Origin: Stegostoma tigrinum | Taxonomy: Eukaryota | Direction of reading: 5' to 3' | Length of the DNA stretch: 64,000 bases | Assembly: GCF_030684315.1 (NCBI RefSeq) | Contig: NC_081387.1 | Span: 5,498,497 to 5,562,496 of the forward strand | In this document: positions 16,757 to 64,000 of the stretch, in pieces | Position numbering within the stretch: position 1 is the first letter of the stretch | Layout: each line of letters begins with the position of its first letter | The notes under the pieces: model-generated | The model's database searches: none | What the model was told of the DNA's origin: nothing | Seen by the model: the letters and a program-made list of their open reading frames with translations, nothing else | Translations under genes and position numbers: made by a program

Positions 16757-17700
16757 GACATCGCAACACAAAAAACAAGATTGTCAATAAGTTATTGGAT
16801 GGATCTACAGTACAGATATTCACAGCAATATCATTCCCCCCAACTGTTAACTCTTTAAGTAAAATAATTTGTCATGATAGAACTTTCAAGTTGTTATTTA
16901 AAGTACTGCTTGTTAATCTTTTCATTCTGAAAAGTAAGTTCCCAACTCCTCCGTGGTACGTGTCGCCCAGTTTCTCCTTAAACACCCTAATAATTCCAAG
17001 CAGAGAATACTCACTACTTGCAAGTGTGAATTCCTTCAGAGCTTCCTTTACCCAAATGATAACTCCCTGCAGAATATTCAGTGCATGGGAGCACAGCACG
17101 TTCATCACTTGTGCTACACACATCAGTAACACTCATCGAAACTGCCTTTGTCCTTTGCATGGAGCATCAGAGACATTCCCCAATTTCGATGTGGGACCTC
17201 CCATGCTGCACAATTTCCAATCAAGGTCTCTTTGTGAAGAACCTCTCCTCTCACTGTTTGCAAACCTTAACAAATATGTTTTCCAGTTCAGTATTTGTGA
17301 ATAGCTTCTCCTGAAATACAATTGTAAATGTGATCAAACCTTCCTTTCCCTTGTGAACACAGCTCGCCATCCTCATCGATTTCAATTTCTATGTCTCATG
17401 CAATTACTGTCAGTCCCTCCAAATTCTGGGGAGGGGTGGGGCACAGACTAGTCTTGTGTGAGTCAGTTAGAAGAGGGACCTTTCTCAACGTAGATTGTGC
17501 TGTTTCAACAAACTCTGTATTGACTCTTGTTCCTCATTGGTGGTTAAGAACTCTGTAACATTGCTATCTAGATGATGTTGCACTGTGTTTACATCAGAAA
17601 CATTGCCTGCAGGATTTAATGTGTCTGTTTCTGATGGACTCTCTTTTTCATTTGTGGCATTACTTCCTTGCTCCAGGTCATGTGGACCATTTGACTCTCT

Positions 17701-17816
17701 CTACAAGGGTTGTATTTGGAGCTCGGACTCAGATATGCTCATCAGTTTCAGTTCCACATTATTGTCCATGACTTCCTGCTGAAGGCGAGTGGGCCTTGTC
17801 TCCAGAATGGGATGAG
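17701..17816 (-). CDS. Gene A exon 6, cytoplasmic tail (AHPILETRPTRLQQEVMDNNVELKLMSISESELQIQPL*)
   Basis: Acceptor ttttcatttatttcag, phase 1; strongly conserved with 47170-46944 while flanks diverge. Small extra exons in the 9.4-kb intron cannot be excluded. Confidence 0.75.
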
Positions 17817-26800: not shown

Positions 26801-29800
26801 CAGTAGCAATTTAAAGGCATCTTGACAGATATATGAATAGGTGAGGAATAGAGGTGTGCAGATCACACAAAGATAAAAGGTTTTTACTTGACAAAGGAGA
26901 CGTGTCAGTGCAGGCTTTGTGGGCCAAGGCCCTAGGAGATAAAGAAACCAGAACTGCACACAATGCTCCAGCACCGAGGCTCTCCAAATGCAGTAAAATT
27001 TCTTTACTTCTATGGTCAAATCCTCTTGCAATAAAGGCCAACATACCATTCACCATTGGTTAAATGACACATTCTGCATTGCCATATTAAACATGGTTAA
27101 TTCACACACTATCCCCTCACTTCTACATTGCCCTCTCTCTCACTCTCCCTTCTGATTTTCCTTTATTCCCAATACTGGAGATCGCCTCACACTCACTGTT
27201 TCCCTAAGTTCTACATTCCGCTCTGTCTGATTCTTACCTCTCCATGGCCTTTTCCAGATGATTATCCCAAATGTAACAGCCAGTCCAGTGACTAATCCAA
27301 TTATTATTGAAAACTGGGACCATGCTCTGTTTATTTCTGGGATTTCTGAAACACATTGAGTAATATCAGTATTAGTTATGTTCCTGTATCCACACCCAGT
27401 GCACTGGGGACAATTTTAACTGATCCCACCCATTGGAAATTGATGGAATTGGTTGATACACTGCATTAAGCTGAGAGTGAAATTTCCCTGGAATTGGGTA
27501 TCTGCAGAAAGAATAGTCTCAGGAAACGCAATTGAACTTTTTCTGTTCATGTTAACATCTTTCTAGTCTTCGACAAGTAATGTTGTTACGCCTTCTTTTC
27601 GGTAATAAACCTGTGCTTGGTGTTTGAAGACCATCTGCAGGCTCTTGTGAATATTCAGAAATTTCAGTGTCTATCCAGCACCATAAGTAACAAAAAGTTA
27701 AGCAAATGATCCATCAAGCCAGACTTTTTAAACAGCCTTAAGGCTGGGACAAGGTGGTTTTTTTGGTCTCGCAAGGAATTAGGGCATCTGGGAAGCAGAG
27801 AGGCAAGAAGAATTAATGACAATGGCAGCAATAGTCATGAGTATGCTCAGTGGTGTACTTTACATTTTTTAAAGTGTTAAATTAAATTGTGGTGAAAATC
27901 ATCCAAAACCTCACTGAATGGTGGAACAGAGTTAAAAGGTAAACATAAGCACAAGCTTGCATGCACATGCACACATTGTATCAGCTCCTTACCCCACTGA
28001 TATAGCTTGGCCTCTGCCAGGCTGCTGTGTTCAATTTGGCAGGAATATTGATCCTCATCCCCAGCACTGATTTCAATCTCTTTCTGGATCTGATGGGTCC
28101 CATCATGGTTCGGTCGAATCCCCGAGGATTGTGTCTCAGACAGGACTTCTCCATTCCTTAGCCAGGTCACCTCGATGTCTACAGGATAAAATCCAGTGAC
28201 CAGGCAGGAGAGAGTGAGCGGCTTGTCCTGATGATTGGGCTCATTTCTGGAGATGAACACTTCAGGCTGAACTGTGATGGGAAAGGGTGAGAACACAAAC
28301 AATAGACAGACATTGAATAGACTAGGACAGCAGTTACATAGATCAGTGAGGTTAGATCTGAACATGGGGCCAAAACTAAAACACATACCTCTCCTTCCAA
28401 AATATTGTCTTCCAAAGTGTAAGCGTGACTTTAAACGCTCAACAAGTTCCTCTTCCAAGTGCCATTTCCAGTGCTTGTTCCATGCTTTATCAGAATCCCA
28501 TTCCTCCTTGATCTTCACTGCAAAGTGATTAGATGCAACCCATCTCATTCTGTCTGATTCTAAACTAATAAAGTCCTTTCCATCAAATCCAACATTCATC
28601 GATCTCTTAATGAAGCCATCAGCAGTGATCTCAACAGTCCTTATGAATTGCAAAATATGCACTCCTGCCAAAGATTAAAAGAGCAACAAAAATTAATTGT
28701 TCATGTAAAAGTCCCTTTAAGATATAATTGGAACTCTACGCAACAAGTTTTAAAATCAGAGATCCTCCTGCTGGCTGAGTGTTATCCTGATAGATTGTTT
28801 TGAGGGTTCTGCTACAGTAACAAGATCTTTTAGTGGAATCAGTTTTAAATGAATAGATCCATCGCCATGTGAACTAATAAGACATTTGTAACTCATTTGA
28901 CTTTGAGCCTGCTTTGCTACTCATTGCTGACTTAATTGTGGCCTTAATTTCACTTTCTTTCTTTTGCCACGAACAACCCATCACTCTTTTGTATATCAAA
29001 AATCTGTCTAACTCAGCCCAGCCTACATTCAATTACCCAGTGCATTGGAGATGACAATCAATGTATCCATCATCTCTGTACCTGTTTATTTTAAGACTCG
29101 AAGGAGGTAACATTTGGGCTTATTAGTTGATCTCTTTTTTTGCTGTGGTGACTATGATTAGTTTAGGTTCATTTTTGTCTCAGGATTTTTATTTTTGAGA
29201 TTTGGTGTCTTCTATTTCGAAGATTATAACAATTGTTCAAAACCACTTCCATTTCTTTACTTGCCATTATTAATTCCCCAGTTTTATCTCCTACATTTTT
29301 TCTGACTCTCTTCACACAGAATCCTGAGGTAGACCTGGGTATTGTGCATTCACATGCCAATGTACTAAGTGCTGTGCTCTTTTATGATTCCACTGATGGG
29401 CAGCATATGGATGAGTAATGGAAAGGGACCAAGAATTGATTCATGGCAAACACCAGAAGTAACACTGAGGGAACAGGAAGAAAAGCTGTATATGCTGACT
29501 GTAAGGCACTTTGAATAGATCGGAAAGGACCTAGGTAAGTTATCTTCCAACCAGTTGGATGACATAGAAGCTTGAGGGGAATGCTATGGCCAATCACTTC
29601 TCACTGCCACTTAAAATCCTTCAAGCTAGCACTTAGACCTTTCAAGTGGTTTGGTTATCCCACAGCTTCTCAAATTTTCACTAAACAAGTGGCCTTGCAC
29701 AGATGCAGACAAGATTGGATATTTTAAAATTGACCTTGATAAACCACTTTCTGGCCCGTGGACTTGCCCTCTTTCCCTAGTTAAAAAAAAATGCTTTTGT

Positions 29801-32800
29801 AGTTGAGTCAGCAACAGCCCACTCTTTCCCTGGCACTTAGTCTGCCTACTGACAGCTCCATCTTGAACAGAATTTTAAGGCAAGTTGCAGGTAACTTTAT
29901 CCACACCTTACAGAAAAGTAATGAGGAAAGAGTTGATGGAGGAATGAGAAAGATTTGCTCAAGGGAATAACCACTCCAGAAAGCAGGAAAGCTAGGAAAT
30001 TTGTAGCAGTCAGTTTATGTAATAAATATGTGCAGACATTTAGAACAATACATTATTAAGCTCTTATAATGACAGCTCACAAGAAAGACAAGTGAGATCT
30101 TTCATTTAGGTGCAGTTACAACATTTAAGAAACATTTGGATAGGGACATGAATAGGGAAAGTTCAGAAAGCTGTGGGCCAAGCACAGGTAAATGGGACTA
30201 ATTTAATTTGGGGAACCTGGTTGGCATGGTTGAAGCATCTGTTTCTGTGCTGTATGACTCTAGGCTGCAGACACGTTGAGAAAAGGTGAAAAGCGAATTT
30301 TTTTTTTACGTGGTCAAGCAAGTCAAGGGATAAGAGCTGTTCTGGGGTGAAAACTTGATTGGTGGGATGTAAATATGAAGTTCCAATAAAATATATTCAG
30401 GAGATGATCATGTATTTAAAGCTTCTTCTTTTACAGAAAAATGATGCTAATAGAAGATTTGAAGGAGAGAGGGACAGAATCTGAGGACTGAGAAATGACA
30501 ATGACAACCAAGACAAAGACAACGAGGCAGTCTACAACTGTACTGCACCAGCAAAAGCTTGTTCTGATGAAAGGTCGCTGGACAAAAAAGTGAACTTTTT
30601 TTCTTTCCACGGCTGTTGCTTGACCTGCTGAACATTTCCCATGGCTTCTGTTCTTATAGTAGTAGAAACTCTTATAGACACACAGTCAGAAAGTAAGCCT
30701 GAAATAGCCAAGAGTTTAACCAACAGCCTGAAGTGAGAAACCATTAAGTTGCACAAAGTAGTAAAATAAACACATTATTCACACCAGGAGCTGCATGAGG
30801 AGTCAGTTGCCAGGGTGGATCCACATGGAGGTTTGACAACTAGCACAGGGCCATGACTGAAATATTTGAATTGTTGTTTTACATATTTCTGACTGCAGCT
30901 TCACTGCTGTGCAGAAGCCAATTCCATAAGATAGCACGTATCCAGCGAAAGTTTTCTTGCCTGTTGTGTGACCAGGTACCCATTCCACAGTTGCCTAATA
31001 TAGCTGTGGTCAGAGTAACCCAAACAGTGTGTGTCTCAGCCTCACATATTGCAGTCTAACTGTGGTTGTATTCTGATCTGCTTTAAACAGGGCAGTTTGT
31101 AACAGAATCCATATCAGCGATCTTACCAGATGTTTGGTTTGTACTTTTCATTACCATTCTCAGATTCTCCCTTGCCTTGGCAGAATGTTCGTTCCCTTGC
31201 TTTGTGAGAATTTTCCAGTAATTAGCATCATACGAGTCTGTCATCCACTGCTGTAAGGAGACTGTCTGACAGGTATTACTGTCATAATGGGTCACAGGAA
31301 CTCCATTGATCATTGTTACACCAAAATACTCAGGTAGGTCAGTTGAGCCAGAGACAGCTATAAAAGCTGCAGTAAAGATTTTGTTCTCTGTAGATTTAAA
31401 CAAAAGTGAAAGGGTCAGGTTTGTTTACTTGATCAAGCAGAGCCTATACCCAATAACCCCACATCAGTGACAGGAGTCATTAAAACAGTCAAATCCACTG
31501 TCTCAATAGGCAGCTGCAATCGGTAATGGAGTCATTTGGATTTTCTAATAATAACACTCAGATTGCCACTCCACCCTTGTTTAACATAAAGCTCCATATT
31601 TCTGGCAGGAGGTTCTGATTCGGCTCCTTCCGAAATGTGGAGCCATACTTGCATCATGACAAGTCAGTACGGTGACTTCAGTGGATACCTCACAGCACGA
31701 GGAAGCCAGGTTTGATCCCACCCTTGGGTGACTGTCTAGTGGAATTTGAACATTCTCTCTACGTCTGTGCGGGTTTCCGCTGGGGGCTCTGGTGTCCTCC
31801 CATGGTCCAAAGATCTGCAGGCGAGGTGGATTGGCCATGCTAAATTGTCTGTAGTGTCCAGGGATGTGCAGGTTGGGTAGGTTAGCCATAGGATATGCAG
31901 GGTTAGGGTGTGGGTGGGATTGTCTTCAGTGTCAGTGTGGATGTGATAGGCTGAATGGCCAGCTTCCATACTGTAGGGATTCTATAACATTTAAAAAAAA
32001 GGTCTTTGGCAGTGCAGGACAGTCTTCACACAGTAGAAGCAGCCAAGGAGACGTCAATGCAAATTGAACATTGAATTCTATTTTTATCTGGAGGGGGAAA
32101 AAATGATTAGCAATCCACTTTCCCTGTTCCAATCAGAAACTGAGAATCAACTACTGTTTATATTCTGGAATAAAAGTACATTAGATTATCAAGGCTCCAT
32201 TTTACTGCAAACATGAAAGTTGATCATTTCTTGAATTCAAATTGCAAACCATAGCTTTAAATTGAGGGGTGAAAGATATAGGACGGATGTCAGAGGTAGT
32301 TTCTTTACTCAGACAGTAGTAAGGGAATGGAATGCTTTGCCTGCAACGGTAGTAGATTTGCCAACTTTAGGTACGTAAGTCGTCATTGGACAAGCATATG
32401 GATGTACATGGAATAGTGTAGGTTAGATGGGCTTGAGATCGGTATGACAGGTCGGCACAACATCGAGGGCCGAAGGGCCTGTACTGTGCTGTAATGTTCT
32501 ATGTTCTAACCAGAGGTTAAATGATTGGCTAGTCTCAGAAAAACTAAACTAAGCAATGACAGTCTGAATCGTCTGTGACCAGTAACCAGGACATTGAAAC
32601 TCACACAGGGTAATGCTTTAAGAACCAAGGACAGCATTTAATTATTATTAGTGTGATGGCCCCCCTACCCCATCACTGTCAGCCAATCACATGGTGGGAA
32701 TGAGGAAGATGGACATGTCACAAGAGATTGAGAATGGAGGCAATCTTACTCTCTTGCCTTTTGGAGGCCATCACAATTCTGTGCTGCAAGTTACTAAACT

Positions 32801-35800: not shown

Positions 35801-37769
35801 TGGGAATCTTGCAGGTGGTGGTGTTCCTATGTATCTGTTTCCCTTGTCCTTTGAGGTGGAAGTGGTCTTGTGTTTGGAAGGTGATGCCTAAGGATCATTG
35901 GCAAATTTATGCAACGAATCTTGAGGTTGGTACACACTGCTACTACCGAGTATCAGTGGTGGATGAAATGCATAAGGTGCTAATTAAGGGGGCTGTTCTG
36001 TCCTGGATAGTGTCAAGTTTCTTGAGTGTTGTTGGAGCTGCACCCATCCAGGTAAGTGGGGAGTATTCCATGACTCTCCTGATGTGTGCCTTACAGATGA
36101 AACTTTGCGGAGACGGGGGCAAGTTACTTGTCACGGTATTCCTAGCCGCTGACCTGCTGTTGTAGTCACCTGGTATTTACATAGAGAGTCCACTTCAGTT
36201 TCTGGTCAATGGTAACTTCCGAGATGTTGATAGTGGAACATTTAGTGATGGTAACACCAATGAATATCTGATTAGAATAAATGTTATTGGAGTTGGTCAT
36301 TGCCTGGCATTTGTGCGGTGCAAATGTTACTTGCCATTTGTCAGCCCAAGCCTTGATAATGACCAGATCTTGTTGCATCTGAACATGGATAATGTGAACT
36401 GCAGATACTGGAGAATCCAAGATAACAAAGTGCGAAGCTAGATGAACACAGCAGGCCAAGCAGCATCGCAGGAGCACAAAAGCTGACGTTTCGGGGATGA
36501 AGGGTCTAGGCCCGACACGTCAGCTTTTGTGCTCCTGAGATGCTGCTTGGCCTGCTGTGTTCATCCAGCTCCACACTCTGCATCTGAACATGGACTGCTT
36601 CAGCATCTCTGCAGTCACAAATGGTATTGAACACTGGGTATGTTCACTAATGATGCACACTTCTGACCTTACGATGGAGGGAAATTAATTGATGAAACAG
36701 TTGAAGATGGTTTGGCCTAGGACACCACCCTGGGGACCTCCTGCAGAGATGTTCTGGAGCTGAGATGACTGACCTCCATCAACTACAACCAGCTACCCTC
36801 ATGCCAGGTGTGACTCCAACCAGCACCAAATTTGCTCCCCTGATATGCATTGTTTGCAGTCATCTGCTCCTTTGCCTTTAGGTACCTCATTTCCCTTCAC
36901 CCTTCTCATTTTCTCTTCATCTCTCTCTCCACCTTCTTCCAAAACCATTAAATTTTTGACCCATGATTCTGTAACTTCCACCCTACGTTCATTTTCCTGC
37001 AGCACTCTGACTGTAGCCTTCACTCCAAAGTAGCTGGTGTAAAGGGCAAAAGACTGCTGCTTCCTTCAGGAGGATGAATTGGTAGTGAGTTTAACCTGAA
37101 GGTCACCACGGCCCAGGCAAAGGGCGAGATTGAGAAGGTAGATCTGTGGCGGTAACCATGGCTGATGCATGAATGAACCCAAACCGTCCAGCCATTGAGC
37201 TACCCAACAACCCGCCCCGCCCAGTTCAGCGTAAACCTCTATTTAATACCCACCATTGACGCATTCGTTTTACTTTGCAGTCAGATACATCGCAATCCCG
37301 GCGAATGAAACCTCTCCTGGCAACGCGCCTATCTACATGTAGTCCTTCCACCCTCCTCCTCCCCCCCCCACCCGTGCCCGGACTAGCCTCTGCCACTCGG
37401 TCATCCTCCAGGGCCCCATACAACTCAGATTCAATTAGTTTTGCCTGTGCTTCTTTCATCAGGGCACCAGGATATTGTATCCATGGGAACAGGATGGAGA
37501 AGGACACACACGCAGATATAAAAAAAGGGAAAGAAAACTGTCAGACACATCTAAATATTATCGCTCGGTACAGACACAAAGACAGTCTCTACAAGTTACT
37601 GCAGTATTTTGACACACGTTTCCTGCAGGCACTGACGATCCCATTCCTTATAAAATCCCAGGGATTTCCCAAACTGGAGAATGGGAGTGAGAATGAAAAG
37701 CTGACTTCTGAACTCACCAGCAGATGCCCAGGAAAAACACAGGGAGATGGAAAAAAGGATCAGCAACAT
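17701..37769 (-). CDS. Gene A: non-classical MHC class I heavy chain, 6 coding exons join(37769-37718,31387-31127,28664-28389,28271-27993,27345-27238,17816-17701), 363 aa; candidate member of a shark non-classical lineage such as UEA (lineage not confirmed)
   Basis: Exons of 52+261+276+279+108+116 = 1092 nt join in frame through phase-1 GT-AG introns. Domain order is signal peptide, alpha1, alpha2, Ig-C1 alpha3, TM, cytoplasmic tail, as in class I genes. Confidence 0.9.
17980..18780 (+). mobile_element. CR1 LINE 3' fragment
   Basis: SKFADNTK, WQMEFNLDKC, terminal ACTCTATG/ATTCTAT repeats. Confidence 0.9.
19135..19650 (+). mobile_element. CR1 LINE 3' fragment (specific to copy A)
   Basis: LERAQKKFTR, EVVETGILRAFKRNLDEYMDRKG; absent at the paralogous site near 47535. 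Confidence 0.88.
21360..21660 (+). mobile_element. Penelope-like GIY-YIG C-terminal remnant
   Basis: DSVIGQHLLDNADCAWSY motif typical of PLE endonuclease tails. Confidence 0.55.
23533..23570 (+). ncRNA. Minimal type-I hammerhead ribozyme motif in a Penelope-derived element (element about 23533-23660)
   Basis: AAGCU | CUGAUGA | A-GGGUCUAGGCCC (stem II) | GAAA-C-GUC (cleavage triplet) | AGCUU; stem I AAGCU/AGCUU is fully complementary. Confidence 0.7.
24590..24900 (-). mobile_element. CR1 LINE 3' fragment
   Basis: TRGHGFKVRREKFKRDLRGNFFKQRVVHVWN. Confidence 0.9.
24900..26920 (+). mobile_element. Old CR1 LINE RT remnants, partly shared with the gene B intron
   Basis: Degenerate GNYRSVSL, GFVKRQSCLTN, FQKAF, VPQ.SVLGP motifs; collinear with about 49900-51080. 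Confidence 0.8.
27238..27345 (-). CDS. Gene A exon 5, connecting peptide and TM (EIPEINRAWSQFSIIIGLVTGLAVTFGIIIWKRPWR)
   Basis: Acceptor gtttcag and donor G|GTAAGA; hydrophobic stretch followed by a basic stop-transfer; paralogous to 53678-53797. Confidence 0.9.
27993..28271 (-). CDS. Gene A exon 4, alpha3 Ig-C1 domain
   Basis: Acceptor tcacag and donor G|GTAAGG; 279 nt; LSCLVTGFYP, VTWLRNG, PNHDGT, YSCQIEHSSL. Confidence 0.96.
28389..28664 (-). CDS. Gene A exon 3, alpha2 domain lacking both cysteines
   Basis: Acceptor tggcag and donor G|GTATGT; 276 nt (canonical alpha2 length); motifs HILQ, GFDGKDFISL, W147. Confidence 0.95.
31127..31387 (-). CDS. Gene A exon 2, alpha1 domain (ENKIFTAAF...YDSN...YW...NQTSG)
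   Basis: Acceptor tacag at 31388 and donor G|GTAAGA at 31126; 261 nt; class I alpha1 motifs LPEY, YDS, QWM, YW and the N86 glycan site NQT. Confidence 0.93.
31665..31985 (+). mobile_element. HE1/V-SINE
   Basis: tRNA-like head and V-domain core GTGGAATTTG..TCTGTGCGGGTTTCC..CCAAAGAT.TGCAGG..GGATTGGCCATGCTAAATTG. Confidence 0.85.
32248..32508 (+). mobile_element. CR1 LINE 3' end (same young subfamily as 2772-3095)
   Basis: Near identity with 2838-3085. Confidence 0.88.
34145..35170 (-). mobile_element. CR1 LINE RT-to-3' fragment
   Basis: FSDWRSVTSSVPQ, MLRLYNTLVRPLLEYSVKFWSP. Confidence 0.92.
35170..35330 (-). mobile_element. Penelope-derived terminal fragment with a hammerhead-like motif (GACAC variant)
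   Basis: Reverse complement reads ..CCCCCTCTCTGATGAAGGGTCTAGGCCCGACACGTCAGC.. Confidence 0.7.
35600..36840 (-). mobile_element. L2/CR1-group LINE 3' portion (related copy at 56140-57000 +)
   Basis: WADKWQVTFAPHKCQAM, KAHIRRVMEYSPLTWMGAAPTTLKKLDTIQ. Confidence 0.85.
36390..36578. mobile_element. Fold-back Penelope-derived element with 16-bp TSD
   Basis: TGCATCTGAACATGGA at 36374-36389 and 36579-36594; inverted arms. Confidence 0.88.
37661..37670. promoter_or_regulatory. NF-kB consensus site in intron 1 of gene A
   Basis: GGGATTTCCC matches GGGRNNYYCC; 47 bp into intron 1. Confidence 0.45.
37718..37769 (-). CDS. Gene A exon 1, signal peptide MLLILFSISLCFSWASA
   Basis: ATG at 37769; hydrophobic core ending in an A-x-A cleavage motif; donor G|GTGAGT at 37717; phase 1 joins alpha1 as G|AG (Glu); MHC-type promoter boxes lie just upstream. 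Confidence 0.88.
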
Positions 37770-43289: not shown

Positions 43290-44140
43290 ATCATTGGACT
43301 GAGGGAGCCACTGCTTCAATTTGTGTGGCAGGCAAGATATTTTCCTGGCTTGGCAGCAGCATCTGGTTTGTGGAGAATTCCATTTGTGTCCTAACTGCGA
43401 AGTAGTGCTGAGAGATGCTGATTTCACCTGCTCCGAATTTTGAAAATTTTTCTCTTTCCAGGGTACGCTGAGAATATATGAGATATCTTTCAGGGTAAAA
43501 CCTGTTAGCAATAGTCCCTTTCATGAGTTTGTACAAAACACAGCAAGTGTTGATTTGATCAGGGTATCTATGATTGTGTATGTTAGCTTTGATGTGCCCT
43601 CTCTCAGCATCAAGCTCATAGAGTGAGCAGCTGGCTAGAACTCTATTCACAGGTTGCAGACAAGATTGATCTTGTAATGTGTGGAGCTGTAGGAATCCCA
43701 ACATGTAATCGATAGGAGTAGAGAATCCATTAGCAAATTTCTCAACAAACACTTCGAAGAAAGGGATCTTGTTTGAATGATGCATTTAATAGTAAATCCG
43801 AGTGCAGGATGGTGTTTGGTAAATTGTTTCATGTGAGCATGCAGGAATGCAAATGACTACAGCTCCTGTCAATCACTAGATGTGGTGTTCCACTTTCCTG
43901 TACGAATATGTTTCATCATTCCTCATCAGATACCTTCAACATAGCCAAAAAATTCATTACAGTCAAAGTCCTTCTTAAAATCATAGGAAAAGTGTTTACT
44001 GGCTGAGGAGGGGGGAAAGAATGAGAAGTAGGTTGTTCGTGTTGATGAGAATGCATCATGATGTATAGTCTGAATTATCATCTGATAGTTTATATATTCA
44101 AACAAATTTTAAATCTAGGGTTTGCTGTACATAATGATTT
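43290..44140 (-). mobile_element. Penelope-like element RT/linker remnant
   Basis: HPALGFT, IPFFEVFVEK..GFST, WDSYSSTHYKINL, NHRYPDQI motifs typical of the PLE RT C-terminus. Confidence 0.75.
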
Positions 44141-46387: not shown

Positions 46388-46720
46388 GGGCTGCACGGTG
46401 GCTCAGTGATTAGCACTGCTGCCTCACAGCACCAAGGACCTGGGTTTGATTCCACCCTCAGGTGACTGTTTGTGTGGAGTTGCACTTTTTCCCTGTGTTT
46501 GTGCGGGTCTCCTCCAGGTGCTCTGGTTTCCTCCCACAGCCCAAAGATGTGCAGGTTAGATAGATTGTCCATGCCAAATTGTTCATAGTGTCAGGCTAGG
46601 TGGATTAGCCATGAGAAATGCAGAATCACAGGGATAGGGTGGGGTGTGGATACAGATGGGATGCTCCTCCGAGCAATGGTATGGGTTGAATGGTCTGCTT
46701 CATAGTGTAGGGGTTCTATG
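46388..46720 (+). mobile_element. HE1/V-SINE (specific to copy B)
   Basis: GGTGGCTCAGTGATTAGCACTGCTGCCTCACAGC..GGTTTGATTCC plus the V core; absent at the paralogous site near 17310. Confidence 0.9.
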
Positions 46721-46943
46721 AAATGCAATCACTTCCCCTGTGAAGTCAGCTTGCCACCCATATCAATTTAAATTTTTATGTCCTGGCAATTAGTTTCAGT
46801 TCGTCCAAACTCTGGACGGCACTGACTCGTATTGGGTTGTAATAGTGACCATTCTCAGTTTGGATTATATTGTCTCAATAATCTCTGCATTGACTCTTGT
46901 TCCTCATTGGTGGTTAATAATTCCGAAACATTGCTACCTCGAT

Positions 46944-47170
46944 TTACATTGGAACACTGCCTGCAGGGTTTAATTTGTCTGCTTCTGATGGATGCTCTTC
47001 TTCATTTGTGGCATTACTCCCTTGCTCCAGGTCATGTGGACCATTTGACTCTCTCTGCAAGGGTTGTATTTGGAGCTCGAGCTCAGATATGCTCATCAGT
47101 TTCAGTTCCACATTATTGTCCATGACTTCCTGTTGATGGAGCGTGGGCCTGGTTCCTAGAGAGGGTTGAG
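46944..47170 (-). CDS. Gene B cytoplasmic exon (AQPSLGTRPT...NPAGSVPM*)
   Basis: Acceptor ttttcattcatttcag, phase 1; paralogous to gene A 17816 downward. Confidence 0.75.
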
Positions 47171-50100
47171 CTGAAATGAATGAAAATATTAAACCAATCA
47201 ATCACATCATAATTGAGAAAAGTATAATTGTGGCCATTAACAGTAAATATGGAATTGTAACATTTTAAGAGATAGTAAGAACTGCAGATACTGGAGTCAG
47301 AAATAATGCAGCGTGGAGCTGGAGGAACACAGCAGGCCAGGCAGATTCAGAGGAGCAGGAAAGCTGATGTTTTAGGTCAGGATCTTTCTTCAGAAAGCAT
47401 CAGTTAGCGTAAGGTTTTATTGTCATTGGTAACATTTACTAGCAGTAAGAAAATTACAGGGAGTAGTAGACTTGACTAATTTCAAATGAATGAAAGGAAA
47501 ATAAGAAATGAATTAACACTGAAGAAAGATGGCAGGGCAGATGATGTGACTGCAGATTTTCTCATGCGCGATAGTGTGATCTGGCACAAAGATGTCTAAG
47601 TAATTATCTGTGCTTTAGAAGCACTGAACCATGAAAATGATACAGCACAGAAGGAAGCCATTCAGCCCATTAACCCACACTGACCCAAAGATACCCTAAT
47701 GCCCTTTCTAATCCCATATTCCTGCGCATGACCTATAGTCCTGCAGCTTACAGCAATTAAGGAGCAAATCCAGATACGTTTCAAAACAGTTAAGGGTTTC
47801 TGCCTCACCAACTCAGGCAGAAAATTCAAGATACACACCATCCTCTGCGTAAAAAAGGTTTTTCCTCATGTCCCCTCTGACTTTTCTGCCACTTAGCTTG
47901 GATCTGTGACCCCCTTTGAACTTTCTGCCAAGGGAAACAGGTTCCTTCTGTCTGGTCTATCTCTACCCCTCACAATTTTGTAAACACGTCACCCCTCAGC
48001 CTTCTCTATTCCGAGGAAAACCACTCCCCATCTCTCCTCATAGCAACATTTCTCCAGCCCTGGCAACATTCTAGTAAATCTTCTCTGCACTCTGTCTACA
48101 GCAATTACTTCCTTCCTCTAATATGGTGACCAGAACTGCACACAGTATTCAAGATGTCGTCTCACCAGTGTCTTATACAATTTCATCATGTATCCCTACT
48201 TTTTATTCTGTACCTCTGCCAGTGAAGGAGAACATTCCATATGCCTTCTTTACAACCTTATCTACTTGCATGCCAATATCTCTCACTTCATCTACCCCCT
48301 CAGTATATTCCCATTTATTTTGTATTCCCTTTTACCATTTGATCCGCTTCAAAGTATTACCTCACACTTATCAGTGTTGAACACCATTTGTCATTTTCCT
48401 GCCCACTCCACCAACTCATCTATATTAATTTGAAGCTTACAGCTGACTTCTACACTATCCACCATGGCCAATTTTTGTGCTGTCTTCAAATTTCCCAGCT
48501 GTACCCACAACCCACATTCAAGTCCATTGTTAATGTATAAGTCCAATGGCAGGGATCCCAACACCGAGCCCCGTGGAATACCACTTGAAACAGCTTTCTA
48601 TCTGCAAGGGTAGCCATTAACCATTACTCTTTGTTTCCTGCTACTAGGCCAACTTTGAATCCAATTTAACACGTTACCACGTATCCAGAGGGCTTTTACT
48701 TTTTTGACCTATCTACGGTGTGGGACCTTGTCAAATGCCTTACTAAAAGCCATTGAGACAGCATCATCTGCAGTACTCTCAATCATCCTTGTCACTTCCT
48801 CAAACAATTCAATCAAATTTGTCAGGAATGACCTTCCCTTAACAAAGCCATACTGACTGTGCCTGACTAGTCCATGTCTTTCTAAGTAACAGTTTACGTG
48901 ATCTCACGATTAATTCTAACAAGTCGCCCACAACTGAAGTAAGTCCAACTGGCCTATAATTGTTTGGCATTTCCTTTTTAAACAATGGAGCTACATTTGC
49001 ATTCCTCCAGTCACAGAGGCATATAGTTCAACTCATCCAAGTCAAGCAAATTTCGCAAAATGTACAAATAACAGATGTAATGCAATAAAACTTCACTAGG
49101 CTAATTCCTGGGAGTGGAAGGATTGCTTTAGGAAGTAAAGTAAAGCAGATTTGGCCTTAATTCTCTTGAGTTTAGAAGAATGTGAGTTGACCTCTTTAAA
49201 AAAAAGCACATTGACGGGGTAAATGAGGTTAGAAATTAAGGATTGTGGGATTCAGTCTCAGAATGAAAGGTAAATCATTGAAGACTGAGATAGGGAAGAC
49301 TTATTTCATCTGGAGCCCAGTGATTCATTGAAATTCACAGTCCTAGATGGCTGGGGATGCTCAATGGTTGAGTTTGTTGAGACTGACATTGATAATTTTT
49401 AGAATATTAAAGAGCATCAAGGGACATGGGGATAAGTGCAGGAAAATGGTGTAGGTAATCATCCCCCGTATAATGGAGTGGGTCGATTGTTCCTTTTTGT
49501 TATGTTCTTATTCATTGTCCAGACTACCAATGCATAAGTTTACTTTTCCGCTTTTCCTCATTAAATAGCCTTACTGTTTCTTTATTTATAGCCAGAAAAC
49601 TTTTATTTTCCCTCCTGTTAGTGATTCTTTGCAGTCTTTTATGATCTACCCAATCTTCCGAGTAACCACCCACATTTATGGAACTGGGCACATTTTGTTT
49701 CAGTTTTACACCACACTTCTTCCTTGAGTCGTCCATAAGTGGCACAACCTTCCCTTAAATCCTACTTTCCACTGAGAAAGAATCCTAGTATTCTGAAATA
49801 TCTCCATGAATTGTTGCCACTGCATCTTCATCGACCTACTCTTGAAACTAATTTCTCTGTTTTTGTGTCCTCATAATTGTCCTTATTTAAGTTTATTTCA
49901 GTCATGGTGTAGACGGTAACATGTTATTAAGCATGAATAGGGGATTGATTACCTACCAGGAAGACAGATTTTTCACAAATGTGTTATTTTTAGGTTGGCA
50001 AGAATGTGATGTATGAAGTGCCACAGTGATTACTGCTGGGCCCTCAATAATTTACAATTTATATCAATGATTTGGTTTAAGAAACTAAATATATGGTTAC

Positions 50101-53100
50101 TATCTTTGGTGATGATAAAAGAAAGGCAGGAAGCAGTATTTTATTTAAGTGGAAAGAGATTGAAGTACTCTGAAGTGCAGAGCGTTCTCGGGGTTCTGAT
50201 TAATGATTCACAGAAACTTAGGATGCAGGTACAGCATGTGATTAGAAAGATAAGTGAAATGTAGTCTAGTGCAAAGAAAATTAAATACAAGAGTAGGAAT
50301 GCTGTGCTACAGTATAGATGTCATTGGTTTGGGCAGCATTGTAGACAACAGCATTAAATTACAGCAATATATTGATAGTGAATGGGCAAAAGCAATGGCA
50401 GATGTATTTTAATAAAGACGAGTGTAAGTTATCCATTCCATACCAAAAAATGATTTAACCAACCAGAACATTTTTTGTTTAATGAGATGAGAGGAATCAT
50501 CTGCAGGAACCATGCAAAGGTATGATCCTCTCATGTAAGATAAAGCTATAGGTGTATGATAAGACATGACAAAAAAGGGTTGCAAGGTTATCTTCTGAGG
50601 AATGTTGGACATGTTGGGCCTTTATTCATTATAGCTTAGAAGAAGGAGAGATGTTCCTATTTGGTCCTGAGGGGATTTGGAAATGTAGATGCTGAAAGAA
50701 TGTTTTCTGTTGTGGAGAGATTAGAATCTTTGAACACAGTTTAAGAGTAAGGAATCTTCCATTTTAATGAAGTGGAAGAGAATTTCTTTTACCTCAGAGA
50801 ATTGAGAGTCTTTAGAATGCTGTTCCCCAGAAAGCAGTGAATGCAGGGTCATTGAAAACATTTAAGATAGAGTTTATCTATTTTTGACCAACAAGGGAGT
50901 CAAAAGGTTATTGTGGGTAGGTTTAGAGTTGTGAACAGATTAGCCGTCTGGGCTTAGTGACCTAACCCTGTTCTGTAGTATTTTGTTCTGCACAATTCAG
51001 ATTTGCTAAAGACCTTCAATATTTTACCACATAGAAACTTCATGGTTATGGCCAGTACATGTGAAGTGAAGGACAAGTAGCATAGTTGATGATAATAAGT
51101 TGACTATAGAACCACAATCAGCATAAATGTTGACAGTGTCAAGAACACTTGGCTTACACGTCATATGTTTTAGATTTTAACTTGTCATTTTAGGCATATA
51201 ATATTTTGGTTAGAGATTATAAGTTTTAGTTGTAGAATCAAGGTAGCAAAGTAAAAGAAGTAAATATAATTTAAACAAACTTGAAGTAAATTATACTGGA
51301 TGTTAACTGGAACCTTTCTTGCAAAGTCACAGCAAAAGGTGTCAATGAGAAATTGAAGAACCCATTGTTATGCTTTAGGTGAAGGTTTCCACTTAGGTAA
51401 CATGGCTGAAGGATGTAACTGATGTGTGAATTTTTCAGACAAAGTGAAGCTGCGAGATGTTTTGCAAGCACTGGTTGACGTCTGCTACTCCTCCTCAAGT
51501 CAATCAAGGCCCATGGCTGCTCCTTCCTCCCTGATTACTCACTGACCTCCACCAGCAGCCTCCATGCTCAGCAGCTTCACACTGTCCATAGGTACCCTCC
51601 CTCCTTTAAGATAGTTAGAGACTTGGTCAGGTTAATTAAACAATAATCACTGTGCAGAAGGTCATACAGTCCAGATAAGGCAGCTTACGCCTCTCATCTC
51701 ATTAAAAAAAAACATGTTCTGGTTGGTTAAATCATTTTTTGGTATGGAATGGATAACTTACGCTTATCTTTATTAAAATACATCTGCCATTGCTTTTGCC
51801 CATTCACTGTCAATATACTGCTGTAACTTTATGCTGTTGTCTACAATGCTGCCCAAATTTGCATACCCTACAAATTTGCATATTTGACTTTTTACGCCAC
51901 TATCCAAGTTGTTAGTTAATATTGAGGCTCCAACACAGACCCTTGCAGGACATCACTGGTCACGTCCTGCCATTTTGAGCACTAACCATTATTGCAACTG
52001 TCTGTTTCCTGCCACTCAACTAATTTCTTATCCATGGCAGTAATTTACCCTGACTTCAATGGGTTTCTACCTCAGGTAACAAACCTTTCCATAGGACCTA
52101 ACATATGCTCTCCCTCTCTTTGGAGTATTTTAGCTATTTGTATTCTGAATGGACCTGTCAAATTTCAAATCTAATGATGATCTTGCTTTTTCTGTGCATC
52201 TTCTTTGCAGTTATAACTTTGTATTTCTCACTCTTTGTATGGATCATAAACAGCAAAGAACACCCTATGACCTTTGTATGTTATGATCTGCCTGTATTGC
52301 ATGCAAAACAAACTTTTCACTGTACTTGGGTACACATGACAAGAATAAATCAAATCAAAGTAAGCAGGTGCCCCTTCTTTGATTAATCACCTGTAATCAT
52401 GTCTTCCCAGGGTTTTGAGGGCTTTTGGAGGCAAAAGACACATTATACATGACACTCACTTAGAGGAAATAGTTAAAACTGACAGAGGTAAAAACCATGA
52501 GTAGTTTATAAACTTGAGGAATGTGAACTTAATTGGAAAATGGATTTCAACATAGATATGTGTAAGATAGCATAACTAAGACAATTTGCAGTTTCGATAA
52601 TAAAGTCTAAATAGGGTTGAGGAACAAAAGGATAGAAATGTACTCATTCATAAATTATTATATGTTGCTGCACAGTCAAGTTCATTTCAAAAGAACAGAA
52701 TTAAAACCTCTTTCCGTATTCTATTTATTAAGCTTGAAATCCATATGTGCACGTCAGTAGAACCAAGGAAACCTAAAATCTATCTAGAAAACACCAAGGA
52801 CCACTCAAACAGCTATCAAAGTGAAAAATGCCCATTGCTTTACAGTGAGCAGTGTCTGGTCAATGCTATTATTAACAATCAAAAGGATCTCTAAGAGACA
52901 CACAAACCCATTTTGAAATCTGTACATGTTGCAGATGTTTAACCTGTGTATGTTCCTTTCCACCCATAATATGTGTCAAACACTTTGTTTTAGTCTGCAT
53001 TAATCCCAAATGGATGTGTATATATTTAGGGATTTTACAGGAGCAAAGTCTAAGTCAAATAGTACCAAATTATAATTTCTTTCTTTTTCTTGCCTTTCTT

Positions 53101-56100
53101 TAAAGTTGTTACAATAAATTTAGGTATTTTACTTTTTATGATTAAAACTGTTGAAAATTTTTATCTTGTGTCGCAGTCACATTGGCAAATTGATAACCTA
53201 AGTGGTCCATTTGGGATTCTATATGGTTTCTGATGGCTTGTGGCACATGGGGCGTGATAATCAATGCAGCCACACCCCCACGCCATTAGATCTTAAAATA
53301 ATCACAGGAATCAAAATTCAGTAGGATGCTGAATCTTCATTGTACTTGCTTTTTGGCAAGTTTATTCTTTCATAGGTAAGGAGTCCAAAACTGCACACAA
53401 TACTCCAGGATTGAGGCTCTCCAATTTTTTTTAAGACTTCTTTACTCCGATGGTCAAATTCTCCTGCAATAATGGCCAACATTCAGTTGATCTTTGGTTT
53501 GATCATACATTCCACATCACCATATTAAAACGCAGTCAATTCACTGACCATCCCCACAGTTCCAAATACCCTTCTCTCTCACTCTCCCCACTCACTGTTC
53601 TGTACTCCCAGTACAGGAGATTCCCCCACACTCACTCTGTCCCTTCAGTTCTACATTCCCCACTCTCTGATTCTTACCTCTCCATGGCTGAATCCAGAAG
53701 AGTATTCCCATTATCCCGACAATAACAGCCAGTGCACTGATCATTGATGCAGTTACGGTTCCAAGATGAAGGTATCCCACACTATTTTCTGGAATTTCTG
53801 AAACATATTTGCATAATATCAGGATTTTTTTCTCTGATCCTCAATATATTTGCAGTGTTCTGTCAGTCTAGTTTTATGCTCTTTTATCTTCCTGGAAGAA
53901 ATTACACAACATTGGGATCAATATTGCCGATATTTCCGCATGTATATTGATAGAAAGCATCCCATTTTGATTGAAGGCTAGCTCTTTGTATAAACAAAAT
54001 GTTAAAAATCCATCCCCTTATTTTTTTTCACAGAGTGATAATGTGATTCAGGGGCAGAGAGAGGTCATGGAAATGTTGCAATGAACACATTTGAGACTTG
54101 AGCAGCTAGGCTGTCACTCCATTACAGTTCCGAGAGAATGCTGCTCTGCCGAATGTTGGTGGAAACAATGCTGTGGCACAGCTGCATGGTGAGAAGGACA
54201 CTACTCATGTGTACTTTTAGAAGGACAGTATTGGGAGAAGGCCAGGCAGCAATGAAGATGCATTGAACTGTTCAATGAACAATGTTGAGAGTCAGTGAGG
54301 GTCAGTACTGAGCAAGTGCTCTACTCTCAGAGAGTGTTAGTACTGAGGGAGTGCCACTGTGTCGGGGGCAGGGAGCAGGGGGAGAGGGTGGGTGGTGGGG
54401 GTCAGAACTGAGAGAGTACCACACCGTCGAAGGGTCAGTGCTGAGGGAGCGGCGCACCGTCAGACGGTCAGTGCTGAGGGAGTGGCGCACCGTCAGACGG
54501 TCAGTGCTGAGGGAGCGGCACACCGTCAGAGGATCAGTTCGAGGGAGTGCCGCACTGTCGGAGGGTCAGTACGGAGGGAGTGCTGCACCATCACAGGGTC
54601 AGTACTGATGGAGTGCTGCACTGTCAGAGGGTCAGTACTGATGGAGTGCTGCACTGTCAGAGGGTCAGTACTGACAGTGTCACACTGTCAGTGGATCAGA
54701 ACTGAGTAAATGCTACACTATTGGAGGGTTGGTACGGGGGAATGCTGCAATGTTTGAGGGGCAGTACTAAAGTAGTTAGGGGGTCAGTTAGCACAGTTGG
54801 TTGGACAGCTGGTTTGTAATGCAGAGTAATGGCAACGTCATGAATTCAATTCCCATACCAGGAAGAATAGAGGAATCGAATATTATTTAAATGGTGAAAG
54901 GCTGCAGAAAGCTACAGCAAAGAGGGATTTGGCAGTCCTTGTTATATAAATCATAAATAAAAACTAGCATCCAAGTTCAGTGGGTAATAGGGAAGGCACA
55001 TGGGCTGTTGGTTTCAAATGTTGCATGTTGTTCAAAGAGAATAGAGTGGAAAGGTTCTGAAGAAGGGTCTAGGCCCGAAACGTCACCTTTCCTGCTCCTA
55101 CGATGCTGCTTGGCCTCCTGTGTTCATCTAGTTCTACACCTTGTTATCTCAGAGTGGAAAGGTAGGGGGGGGTTTGCTAAAACTCTCCAAGGCAGAAGTC
55201 AGACCACAATTGGAATACTGTGAACAGTTTTGTGCTCCTTATTTAGGGAAAGATATAAGACAGGCCAAAGAAAGTTGACTAGCTGATACCGGGTAAGGAG
55301 GCACTGTTTAGGAGGAAACATTGAGTATGTTGGGCTTGTACTCATTAGAATTTAGAAAAATGAGAGGTGACCTTACGGAAAAATGCAAGATTTTTCAGGG
55401 CTTGATCAGGTAGGTAGAGAAAGATTGTTTTCTCCTTGGTGAAAAGCCTTAGACCAGATTTTTTTAAATTTCAGAATTGGTTCTGCATTTAAAATAGAGA
55501 TGAGAAAGATTTTCTTCTCCCACAGGGTAGAAAATCTGTGCAATTCTTTATCACAGAGATCTGACAAGGCTACAGGAGAGCAAGTGAGGAGCAACACCAG
55601 TTAAGTCCAAAACAGGTGTCAACCTATTGAAAGTACAACCCAAGACTATTTATCCATCAAACAGAGTAATCAGCAATGTGACAGATGGGACTAAATGTTC
55701 CTGTAATAAGTAGATCAGATCTGCAGTCCTAACGTACACAATATGAAAGTTCATCACAAGCAGCTAAATAGTGATAGAAGATGCTCCACAAATACCCCTA
55801 CCTTAATGATAAGGAGGTCAGTTGATCAGGTTTTGGTCTTGTAAAGCAAAAATTGTGTGTTCAAATTCTACCTGCACTTACAAATGACTGCCTGAAGCAA
55901 GCTCCACCTGTTCTACATCGCTCAGAATTAGACTGAAAGCAACCTCTTTGTCCTGCCATATACATGGTTTTCAATCTCAATTAGAAGTCATATAGGCAAA
56001 GGTAGCCTAGATGAGGAGTTTATAGAATGTTTTCAGGTTAGAATATCATGTTCTCAAGCTGAGCAGTGGGCAGACTGTATTAGGCTTGATATTGTGCTAA

Positions 56101-59100
56101 GGTATAAGATTAATTAGTGAAAACGCTCCACAACAAGCGTTCCTTAAAGATAGTGTCCTGTGTTTGACCATCTTCAATTGCTTCATCAATGACCTTCCCT
56201 CCAATTTAAGGTCAAGATCATTGATGAATATGTAATGTTCAGTTTCATTGCTAACTCCCCAGGTGCTGAAGCAATCTGCGACCAAATACAACAAGACCTG
56301 GCCAATATTTAGGTTTTAGGTGGGGAGTGATAAGTAATATTCATGCCATACAAGCATTACGCATTGCCAACAAGAATCTAATCATTCTCTTTGATGTTCA
56401 ATGACATGACCATCATTCACCGTCAATATCCTGGGGTTACAATTTACCAGAAACTTTGCTGGACCAGTCATATAAATGCTGTGGCAGGGCACAGGTTGGG
56501 AATTCTGTGATGAGTAACTCTCACATTCTGTTTCCCCAGTGCTTGCCCCGCAAGTCACAAGTCAGCACTGTGGTAGCATACTCTCCATTTGCCTGATGAG
56601 TTCAGCATCAAAAACACTGAGGCACATCAACATCATTCTGGACAGAGTGGTCAGCTTGACTGGCATCCCATCCATCCCCTTCAACTTTCACTCCAAAACC
56701 TATACAGCATATTTGCAGTGTGTACAAATAAATATTATGCAATGCAGCAACTTGACAACAATACATGACTTCTACTAGTTAGAAGGACAGAAGCAGCAGA
56801 CTCAATGTGAACAAAACCACTTACAAGTTTGCCCTCTAAGTCACACATGCTCACTATGGCTCAACCAAGCTCCTGGAACTCCTTTTCTAACTGGACTGTG
56901 GCTGTCCCTAAACCACATGGACAACAGCAGTTCAATGAGGAAGTTCACTGCCACCTTCTAAAGGCAATCAGGGATGGCTAATAAATGTCCGTGCTGCCAA
57001 AATCGTTATGAAAGAATTTTATAAAAAAGCAGGTGGTGTGGAGGCAGGATAACATTGGGACAATAGGAAGCAATGTTATGACATTGGGAGTGAGGGGGTG
57101 GTTGGAGTGATAAGAGGCTGGTGAAAGTGTTCGTGGTATGGAGGGTGATAAAGAAATGAATGTGATGATAGGATAATGGGGTTCATGAAGGGATGGTAGG
57201 GAGTTTTTGTTTGTTCATTCACATGATGAGGGCGTCGCTGGCTAGGCCAGCATTTATTGCCCATCCCAGACGGTGTTTAAATTCAACTATATTGCTGTGG
57301 GTCTGGAGTCACATGTAGTTCAGACCAGGTAAGGATGTCAGTTTCCTTCCCAAAACAGCATTCGTGAACCAGATGAGTTTTTCCTGATAATTGACAACAG
57401 GTTAATGGTCATCAACAGTCTCCTCGAATTCTATATTCTGCCGTGGTAGGATTCAAAGCCGGCTCCCCAGAACATTACTTGGGTCTCTGAGGTAACAGTC
57501 CGGTGATAACAATAGGCAGTCACCTCTCCATGATGAGGGGATAGGTGCGTGACATATATGGGTTGAAAGACACAGAACGAGTAAGGAGGATGAGGCAGTG
57601 AGTGTTCGAAAACCTGCTGATATCATGTACAAACTGTCACCATTGATAATTCAGTTCCCTACTGCATCATACCTCACCAGCAGCATCTCGCTTCCAAAAA
57701 GATTTAAGGGGATAAGAGAGCAGGAGAAGTAAAAGAAGTTACAAAAAGAGAAATAAACAGTAGCAAAGAAAAAATAACAAAGGGAAATGGCAACATGAAG
57801 TCATCAGTCGAATGAGGGACACCATACACTCTGACTTACTATCTGGAGCCTCGGGAGAGGTTGATGAGTAGGAGAACTGCACGTAGAAAATACACTTTCC
57901 CTGTACTCCTGTTATGATATAAATGAGTCTGGTCTAGAAGTTTGCTGGGGCATATTTATAAATATCAGTATTTACTGCACCAACTAGATCCATCTTTCAG
58001 AATGCAACTTTCGTTTCTTGTTGGATTGTTTGGAAAATCCAAACTCTCAAGGATTTCATTTCTAGTTCAGCAATATGTCAAAGACTTAACTTCAGGCTCT
58101 CCCCAACCTCACGTTCATGTTGCCTTATCAGGAGAAGTAGAAGCAGGAGTAGCCATATTTGCCTATTCTACCTTTCAATACGAACCTGGCTCATTTTGTG
58201 CCTTACTGCCACTTTCCTGCTTATCCTCCAGATCCCTTGGTTACCTGAGACAACAAACTCTGTCTATTTCAGACTAAAATATATTCAGCAACAGAATATT
58301 CACATTCGCGTAGGGGACACAATTCATAATTCTTAAAGGGTGGCCATTTCTAAAGGGCAGTTCAGAGTAAGAACACCTCAGTATCTGGGGATCGAAAATT
58401 GTGGCAGTATCTCATTCATCTTCCCTTCTCAGCCATGCATGTTCTCCCGCACTCCTTCTCCCTTGCTGTCCCACACTTTCAGTTCAGTTCCTTACCCCAC
58501 TGATGCAGCTTAGCCTCTGTCATGCTGCTGTGTTCAACCTGACAGGAATATTGATCCTCATCCCCATCACTGATTTCAATCTCTTTATGGATCTGATGAG
58601 TCCCATCGTGGTTCGGTCGAATCCCTGAGGATTGTGTCTCGGACATGACCTCTCCATTCCTTAGCCAGGTCACCTCGATGTCTACAGGATAAAATCCAGT
58701 GACCAGGCAGGAGAGAGTGAGCGGCTTGTCCTGACGATTGGGCTCACTCCTGGAGATGAACACTTCAGGCTGAACTGTGATGGGAAAGGGTGAGAACACA
58801 AACAATAGACAGACACCGAGTGGAATAGGAGAACGGTTTCATTGATCAGTGAGGTTAGATCTGAACATGGGATCAAAAATTCAAACACACACCTTTCCTT
58901 TTGAGATGCTCCTTTCCAATGTTTAAACGTGATTTTAAGCGTTCAACAAGCTCCACTTCCATCAGCCATTTCCAAAACTTGTTCCAGGATTCGTCAGAAT
59001 CCCATTTCTCTTTTGTTTTCACTGCATTGTGATGCGATGCGACCCATCTCATTCTGTTCGACTCCAAACTAATGTAGTCCTTTCCGTCAAAGGCAACATT

Positions 59101-59168
59101 CATTGTTCTCTTAACGGAGCCATCTTCAGACACCTCAACATTCCTTATCCATTGCAAAATATGCTTTC
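46944..59168 (-). CDS. Gene B: second non-classical MHC class I heavy chain, 5'-partial, join(59168-58893,58774-58496,53797-53678,47170-46944)
   Basis: Same exon phases as gene A, same alpha2/alpha3 exon sizes, GT-AG junctions. No alpha1 or leader exon recognised in 59170-64000, so these are presumably outside the window. Confidence 0.88.
47625..49010 (-). mobile_element. CR1 LINE RT-to-3' fragment
   Basis: Continuous reverse-strand CR1 RT motifs and 3' tail. Confidence 0.9.
51260..51640 (-). mobile_element. Probable Harbinger transposase N-terminal remnant
   Basis: Weak similarity to the 6000-6200 Harbinger segment; heavily degraded. Confidence 0.4.
53678..53797 (-). CDS. Gene B TM exon (EIPENSVGYLHLGTVTASMISALAVIVGIMGILFWIQPWR)
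   Basis: Acceptor gtttcag and donor G|GTAAGA; 120 nt; shares the EIPE...PWR frame with gene A. Confidence 0.9.
54296..54770. repeat. 33-bp minisatellite derived from a Deu-type SINE core
   Basis: Unit GGTCAGT(G/A)CTGAGGGAG(C/T)G(G/C)(C/T)GCAC(C/T)GTCAGA(C/G) at 54433, 54466, 54499 and onward; roughly 12 units. Confidence 0.9.
54860..55570 (+). mobile_element. CR1 LINE fragment containing a Penelope-derived insert (55056-55150, 13-bp TSD)
   Basis: LEYCEQF, RGDL motifs; AGAGTGGAAAGGT at 55043-55055 and 55151-55163. Confidence 0.85.
58496..58774 (-). CDS. Gene B alpha3 Ig-C1 exon
   Basis: 279 nt; 9/93 aa differences from gene A; donor G|GTAAGG. Confidence 0.96.
58893..59168 (-). CDS. Gene B alpha2 exon, no cysteines
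   Basis: Acceptor tgacag and donor G|GTGTGT; 276 nt; about 67% aa identical to gene A alpha2 (30/92 differences by manual count). Confidence 0.95.
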
Positions 59169-61209: not shown

Positions 61210-61411
61210 AGAGATATTGGGAACTGCAGATGCTGGAGAATCCAAGATAACAAAGTGTGGAGCTGGATGAACGCAGCAGGCCAAGCAGCATCTTAGGAGC
61301 ACAAAAGCTGAGGTTTCGGGCCTAGAAGGGTCTAGGCCCAAAACATCAGCTTTTGTGCTCCTAAGATGCTGCTTGGCCTGCTGCGTTCATCCAGCCCCAC
61401 ACTTTGTTATC
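61210..61411. mobile_element. Fold-back Penelope-derived element with about 12-bp TSD
   Basis: Long near-perfect palindrome; GTAGTGC(C/T)TAAC at 61198-61209 and 61412-61423. Confidence 0.88.
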
Positions 61412-62989: not shown

Positions 62990-63114
62990 AGTTGTTCAAA
63001 ATCTGGAGGGGCATAGGTAGAGTGCATAGGGAGAAACTGTTTCCCATTCATGGAAAGATGAAAAACCAGGGGTCACCCATTTATTGGGACTGGCAAAGTG
63101 AGTGAAAATTGTGC

Positions 63115-63985: not shown

Positions 63986-64000
63986 CTTCCTTCTGTGTTG

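Follow-up and report, generated by a model that had tools for sequence, protein, structure and literature searches.

A single-base deletion in the last coding exon of gene B, one of two tandem MHC class I genes, cuts short a long cytoplasmic tail and takes with it an old dileucine motif that may once have served as an endocytic sorting signal. The deletion in gene B is real and not an assembly slip. As to why the two leucines were lost, the evidence leans towards drift in a weakly constrained and redundant tandem family, a change tolerated rather than chosen, with slower endocytosis as a possible side effect. That a class Ib gene can be truncated in its tail and so lose an endocytic motif is already known. 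The literature searched lists no paper on a long tail or a dileucine motif in class Ib genes of sharks; the principal UEA paper and its supplements lay outside that search and may cover the subject.

Two tandem class I genes

The window, the whole 64,000-nucleotide stretch of DNA that was analysed, carries the two MHC class I genes, A and B, on its minus strand, about 29-30 kb apart. A Pfam scan finds MHC_I and C1-set domains in both, and the locus has what defines a class I heavy chain: alpha1/alpha2 (PF00129), an alpha3 C1-set domain, a transmembrane exon and phase-1 introns, the alpha1 and leader exons of gene B being outside the window or missing. Every exon of A and B is in phase 1 and has a length of 3n. 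Gene A is complete, with its leader starting at 37769 and its last exon at 17816-17485, and gene B has its alpha2, alpha3, transmembrane and last exons within the window. No alpha1 or leader exon of gene B was found in 59169-64000, the 4.8 kb up to the end of the window; in gene A, alpha1 lies 2.5 kb upstream of alpha2. Neither genes flanking the MHC genes nor the short-tail exons of the family were found in the window. The features are these:

46855..47170, minus strand: last coding exon of gene B in its ancestral extent, encoding the cytoplasmic tail; phase 1, acceptor AG at 47172-47171, spliced to the transmembrane exon in a run X2 contig
46952..46954, minus strand: one base deleted from a run of T in gene B, which has TT; gene A has TTT, and the whale shark frame implies three T there too
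46944..46946, minus strand: gene B premature stop TAA, leaving the last exon 75 residues that end in GSVPM
46855..46953, minus strand: gene B untranslated ghost frame, 32 codons plus TGA, 30/32 residues as in the whale shark orthologue's real tail
46876..46905, minus strand: gene B ghost motif EEQESMQRLL, with E at -5, S at -4 and LL at 46881-46876
53678..53797, minus strand: gene B transmembrane exon
58496..58774, minus strand: gene B alpha3 exon (C1-set)
58893..59168, minus strand: gene B alpha2 exon (MHC_I; without the cysteine pair)
17485..17816, minus strand: gene A last coding exon, with a premature TAG at 17703-17701 (codon 38) and a distal TGA at 17487-17485
27238..27345, minus strand: gene A transmembrane exon, skipped in one run X5 contig
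27993..28271, minus strand: gene A alpha3 exon
28389..28664, minus strand: gene A alpha2 exon
31127..31387, minus strand: gene A alpha1 exon
37718..37769, minus strand: gene A leader exon, ATG at 37769

The tail and alpha3 exons of A and B differ at a pS of 0.15-0.17 (17599-17887 vs 46953-47241; 27981-28280 vs 58484-58783) and the alpha2 exons at 0.49, and in the epaulette and bamboo sharks too the A and B tails are alike within a species. Together the closeness of tails and alpha3 relative to alpha2 and this within-species likeness suggest gene conversion between the tail and alpha3 exons of A and B.

Several other elements lie around the exons. The interval 17926-17975 holds what is left of a small cytoplasmic exon of the TGNPQQ.. 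type, which other long-tailed relatives use; an in-frame TAA interrupts it, no GT donor stands where one is expected, and a repeat has seemingly replaced its 5' side. Gene B shows no trace of an exon of this type, and a repeat stands at 47263-47396. The alpha3-transmembrane intron of gene B contains a 33-bp tandem repeat of about 9.4 copies (54399-54706). Inverted repeat arms at 50328-50480 and 51705-51857 (153 nt, 94% complementary, 1.2 kb apart) are possibly the ends of a DNA transposon. Duplicated sequence downstream of both genes includes a 164-codon ORF without a Pfam match (43291-43785 and 13687-14670), which resembles a retroelement remnant.

Lineage assignment

Gene B is a shark non-classical class I gene, probably of the UEA lineage. 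The proteins nearest to A and B come from whale shark, which suggests that the window's organism is a carpet shark close to it. The paper on that lineage reportedly places it in sharks and not in rays or chimaeras; UEA is MHC-linked and clustered with UDA. Many paralogues per species appear among the 120 of 149 matches listed in a word-limited search, and the named close matches among them (P0004-P0102) are all sharks. A multicopy family with named close matches in sharks throughout fits UEA, described as the multicopy class Ib lineage in PMC10751288 and PMC12562908, and the lineage name is drawn from that fit. In the supplement of PMC10751288, alpha2 is nearest, by eye, to the nurse shark query labelled Gcirratum_UCA (about 65%, 60/92 by hand count; supplement file 10) and far closer to it than to the UAA, UBA, UDA, UFA and UGA queries; that supplement gave no match for a sequence labelled UEA. 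A quick tree sets the family apart from five outgroup rows with support 100, on 90 columns and with 40 of its 85 branches open. Read by eye, the alpha2 domain of gene B departs from classical class Ia (UAA) in that both cysteines are absent and L, R and R stand for Y159, W167 and Y171, a numbering that we assume here; T143, K146 and W147 are kept. Alpha2 is without cysteine in 66 of 83 family rows, a trait common to A (28389-28664), B (58893-59168) and the dogfish UCA query.

The deletion and its reality

A preliminary description of the sequence had read GTT CCA ATG TAA in gene B against GTT TCT GAT GTA in gene A and proposed a 1-bp deletion. The letters are GGC AGT GTT CCA ATG TAA and GGC AAT GTT TCT GAT GTA, and the three-T run of gene A is two T in gene B (46954-46953), with the stop at 46946-46944 behind it. 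The restored frame ends, as had been said, at TGA 46857-46855, in register with gene A's distal stop TGA 17487-17485 and homologous to it, and both ghost tails, the former coding stretches beyond the premature stops, do keep TTNEEQES(I/M)Q(S/R)LL with E at -5 and S at -4. Gene B also lacks 15 in-frame bases relative to A, which that description left unremarked; this gap is older than the deletion, since it is common to the whale shark orthologue and to the orthologue of gene B in organism B. An extra letter behind 46952 is present in A-type contigs and in contigs of organism B, whose gene B orthologue has the base that B lacks and a TAA of its own at codon 33. A contig of run X11 was considered as an intact gene B orthologue and ruled out, codon analysis having found a stop of its own.

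Could the deletion be a sequencing or assembly error? It does sit in a short homopolymer, and its support comes from contigs; yet in three of three runs of the window's organism (X1, X2 and X5; three samples, two studies, depth up to 163) the contigs across 46640-47049 are identical, with no other letters and no gaps, which leaves an error with next to no probability. Run X1 possibly comes from the sample that was assembled, and rare alleles are lost from contigs. The contig comparison took in 4 of the 23 runs listed, its variants were taken from the rows listed (6 further variant rows) in a list that excludes changes near contig ends, and X2 and X5 are taken as RNA solely on their spliced junctions. 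A contig of run X2 joins the gene B transmembrane exon (contig end placed at 53680) to 47170, so the assumed phase of the last exon is right. Among the joints listed in contigs, none lies inside the last exon of gene B so as to restore the ghost frame. The TAG of gene A is seen only in a run X1 contig; X2 and X5 contigs carry B's letters there, probably because near-identical copies were merged, and gene A's TAG is therefore without independent confirmation.

Ancestry of the lost tail

The whale shark model (second half of P0142; 85/90 or 94% identical to gene B in alpha2) runs in frame through the deletion site and ends in ...EEQESMQRLLRQCNPN, and the whale shark orthologue of A, 89/90 identical in alpha2, has Q at the position of gene A's TAG. 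With Q at the one site and an open frame at the other, both lesions are derived, which bears out the earlier claim that they arose independently. The ghost frame is thus ancestral coding sequence, and its openness is more than chance. The tail of gene B and that of whale shark B are 85% alike, the similarity being 30/32 in the ghost part and 58/72 in the translated part (p 0.14). The public gene models P0124, P0126, P0142, P0006 and P0007 appear to fuse neighbouring class Ib genes, and such fused models hide intact B orthologues from length-limited searches.

A putative sorting signal

The motif EExE[STA]xQxL[LF] is old and makes a plausible endocytic sorting signal. It is carried by two horn shark genes, by the small-spotted catshark and by the B-type genes of the whale, epaulette and brownbanded bamboo sharks; one epaulette A-type gene carries it with LF, the sole direct change of the LL seen. 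Three of the motif-bearing sequences are halves of fused gene models. Across gene A, horn shark and catshark, 7 of 10 columns of the motif are invariant as against 27 of 113 overall, with p 0.002 for that stretch and 0.08 for any stretch, a second one scoring equally high. In intact orthologues the motif follows the transmembrane exon and is cytosolic, which does not hold for the isoform that skips this exon. None of six tails scanned matches the canonical [DE]xxxL[LI], the acid being at -5 and not at -4, and a motif scan finds neither LL nor YxxPhi in the translated tails of A and B.

The preliminary description called the signal non-canonical. As a matter of pattern this stands, but as an objection it is weak, for CD8 chimeras with a glutamate at -5 (a four-residue spacer) were internalised nearly as well as those with one at -4, according to PMC2882754, where dileucines are also reported to bind the sigma subunit of AP-2. 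The suggestion of a putative sorting signal accordingly stays plausible, the motif being ancestral and conserved and an acid at -5 functional in CD8 reporters.

Survey of long-tailed genes

Of 25 long-tailed genes seen, 23 were scored: 7 keep the motif and 16 have lost it through 13 events, while a fourteenth lesion, at catshark codon 106, spares it. Most family members have a different, short tail and never had the long one; the idea of retuning "across the family" was accordingly overstated. The gene count excludes isoform duplicates, P0129 and P0131 (models leaving the exon early), the first half of P0142 and an A-type contig of organism B. End points near codon 52 in Carcharodon and Cetorhinus count as one event, as do three hemiscylliid end points; the latter, common to three species, imply that a truncated gene persisted through speciation. 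Three lesion positions come from DNA (A, B and the organism B orthologue) and 11 from predicted proteins mapped by hand. Tail-only protein searches matched 2 of 66 and 3 of 23 candidates, and most long tails came from the family search and from cluster members (10 clusters).

The LL occupies codons 102-103 of a 109-codon exon, 7 codons from its end. One lesion thus has a chance of 0.945 of removing it and two a chance of 0.89 of both doing so; 13 of the 14 lesions do, against 13.2 expected. Since the LL is almost terminal, two lesions that both remove it are no more than chance. The 14 positions, from codon 11 to codon 106, are uniform (KS p 0.81).

Drift or selection?

Any upstream stop removes the LL, so uniform positions are expected under drift and under favoured loss alike, and only the rate discriminates. 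The rate of truncation shows no excess over neutral. Over A, B and the organism B orthologue, with 42 changed sites, 2 stops are seen where 2.3-2.9 are expected (slightly fewer with transition-weighted rates), and nine carpet-shark tail rows have 4 where 3.1-4.5 are expected. Tail pN/pS is 0.55 (A vs B, codons 1-71) and 0.59 (B vs organism B), with neutral at 0.60-0.61; alpha2 has 0.33 and alpha3 0.24, and sub-regions of the tail give 0.45, 0.81 and 0.45 on few changes each. The tail exon keeps pace with its 3' UTR in divergence (34/337 sites and 12/153, p 0.51). Deep branches have 2 stops against 5-10 expected (p 0.004-0.12), which speaks against pure drift in a sample biased by the picking of intact rows. 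The conserved columns of the motif and the closer likeness of the ghost part to whale shark (p 0.14) point the same way. All lesion, stop and retention counts are small. Two lesions on the same segment had been taken to suggest that trafficking is being retuned; with 94.5% of lesions removing the LL, uniform positions, and stops and pN/pS at neutral values, that reading is unsupported.

Gene B is one of a small group of long-tailed genes within a multicopy class Ib lineage of sharks. Comparison shows that the ancestral heavy chain had an acidic tail, some 110 residues long, with EExE[STA]xQxLL at its end. Reporter work on other proteins suggests that the two leucines most likely docked in the sigma subunit of the clathrin adaptor AP-2 and the glutamate at -5 on its basic patch, and that the ancestral protein would have been drawn into endosomes. 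One T was lost in gene B after the split from the whale shark, and the transmembrane-to-last-exon junction shows that transcription and splicing of the gene continue. Nonsense-mediated decay is expected to spare a transcript whose stop lies in the last exon. The expected product would have a shorter tail with neither LL nor YxxPhi, and by analogy with HLA-G the protein may dwell longer at the surface. On the drift account, the change would be tolerated because the family is redundant; stops and frameshifts are scattered over the exon about as often as neutral change predicts, and almost every one of them removes a near-terminal motif.

Could the loss have been favoured instead? It is possible, though on the unlikely side, that the motif was a working endocytic signal and that, after duplication, surface-resident copies without it were selected beside copies cycling through endosomes. 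Horn shark and carpet sharks have the motif in common, reporters with an acid at -5 are internalised (PMC2882754), and HLA-G offers a precedent (PMC3021195). The whale, epaulette and brownbanded bamboo sharks keep the LL in B and have lost it in an A copy, while organism B has lost it in B and has an A-type contig whose covered part, the end segment, is intact. Carpet-shark B orthologues keep the LL in 3 of 5 cases and A orthologues in 1 of 5, which hints at a division of labour; the asymmetry is, however, non-significant (p 0.52). Against favoured loss, stops are not in excess of neutral, the LL itself has changed directly only once (to LF), the window's species has lost the motif in both copies, and no motif-bearing copy is found among the listed proteins, a non-exhaustive set, of Mustelus, Carcharodon, Cetorhinus and S. 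torazame.

A broader proposal, which we regard as unlikely, is that of an old long-tailed class Ib subfamily whose E-x4-LL signal worked in endocytosis. After duplication, species would have kept it on different paralogues (organism B apparently on A; the whale, epaulette and bamboo sharks on B), so dividing endosome-sampling from surface-resident or secreted copies, and the window's species would only recently have lost it from both. If this were true, that species would be a natural knockout of an endosomal route of antigen presentation.

Is the frameshift an early sign of decay of the whole gene? Birth and death are usual in class Ib clusters, and no alpha1 or leader turns up in 59169-64000 although gene A's alpha1 is only 2.5 kb from its alpha2; a gene B turning into a pseudogene, or lacking alpha1, is nevertheless improbable, as its alpha2, alpha3 and transmembrane exons keep unbroken reading frames and intact splice sites, alpha2 is 85/90 identical to whale shark, a spliced junction is present, and the window may end before the 5' exons. 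Very improbable is the view that the last exon serves mainly as the extracellular end of a soluble, transmembrane-skipping form, which would make a cytosolic motif irrelevant: a run X5 contig (record 18) does join gene A alpha3 (27993) straight to the last exon (17816), isoforms without the transmembrane exon are predicted in whale shark, horn shark and S. torazame, and the tail has 1-3 N-glycosylation sequons, but gene B shows only the membrane junction (X2; also X11), such sequons are expected by chance in an N/S/T-rich stretch (estimate about two), and LL conservation fits a cytosolic role better.

If drift is the cause, the likelier case, the tail is one more instance of the erosion that is ordinary where genes are born and die, and it warns that the loss of a motif at the very end of a protein is easily mistaken for convergence. 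Shark class Ib lineages are described as having no known function in PMC10751288. A conserved endocytic-type motif would imply that the subfamily cycled through endosomes, like CD1 and certain other class Ib proteins. Natural pairs in which one member has the motif and the other lacks it, such as whale shark B and gene B of the window, would make a ready assay.

Comparison with known systems

Like A and B, the shark UEA lineage, related to dogfish UCA, consists of multicopy tandem class I genes with an alpha2 domain devoid of the cysteine pair; most UEA-like family members have a short tail of the DSPSGTYTTAP type, whereas A and B have the rare long one. Teleost class I molecules (cod MHC I, trout UGA) have dileucine-like tail motifs proposed to route them to endosomes (PMC6523485, PMC3760826). 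In cod MHC I, mutating or deleting predicted tail motifs left trafficking unaltered (PMC9905690), a warning for the shark case. The ghost tail resembles the [DE]xxxL[LI] signals of the invariant chain and others in having acidic residues upstream of an LL near the end of a type I tail, and differs from them in its acid at -5 and S/T/A at -4.

HLA-G, like gene B, is a class Ib gene with a tail cut short by a premature stop, so that part of its 3' UTR was once coding. Without an endocytosis motif HLA-G has a longer surface half-life, and it has soluble splice forms, as reported in PMC3021195. The two genes belong to unrelated lineages, and the likeness has its bounds: HLA-G has lost nearly its whole tail, with an effect that was measured, whereas gene B keeps 75 exon residues and its motif is a dileucine known from sequence.
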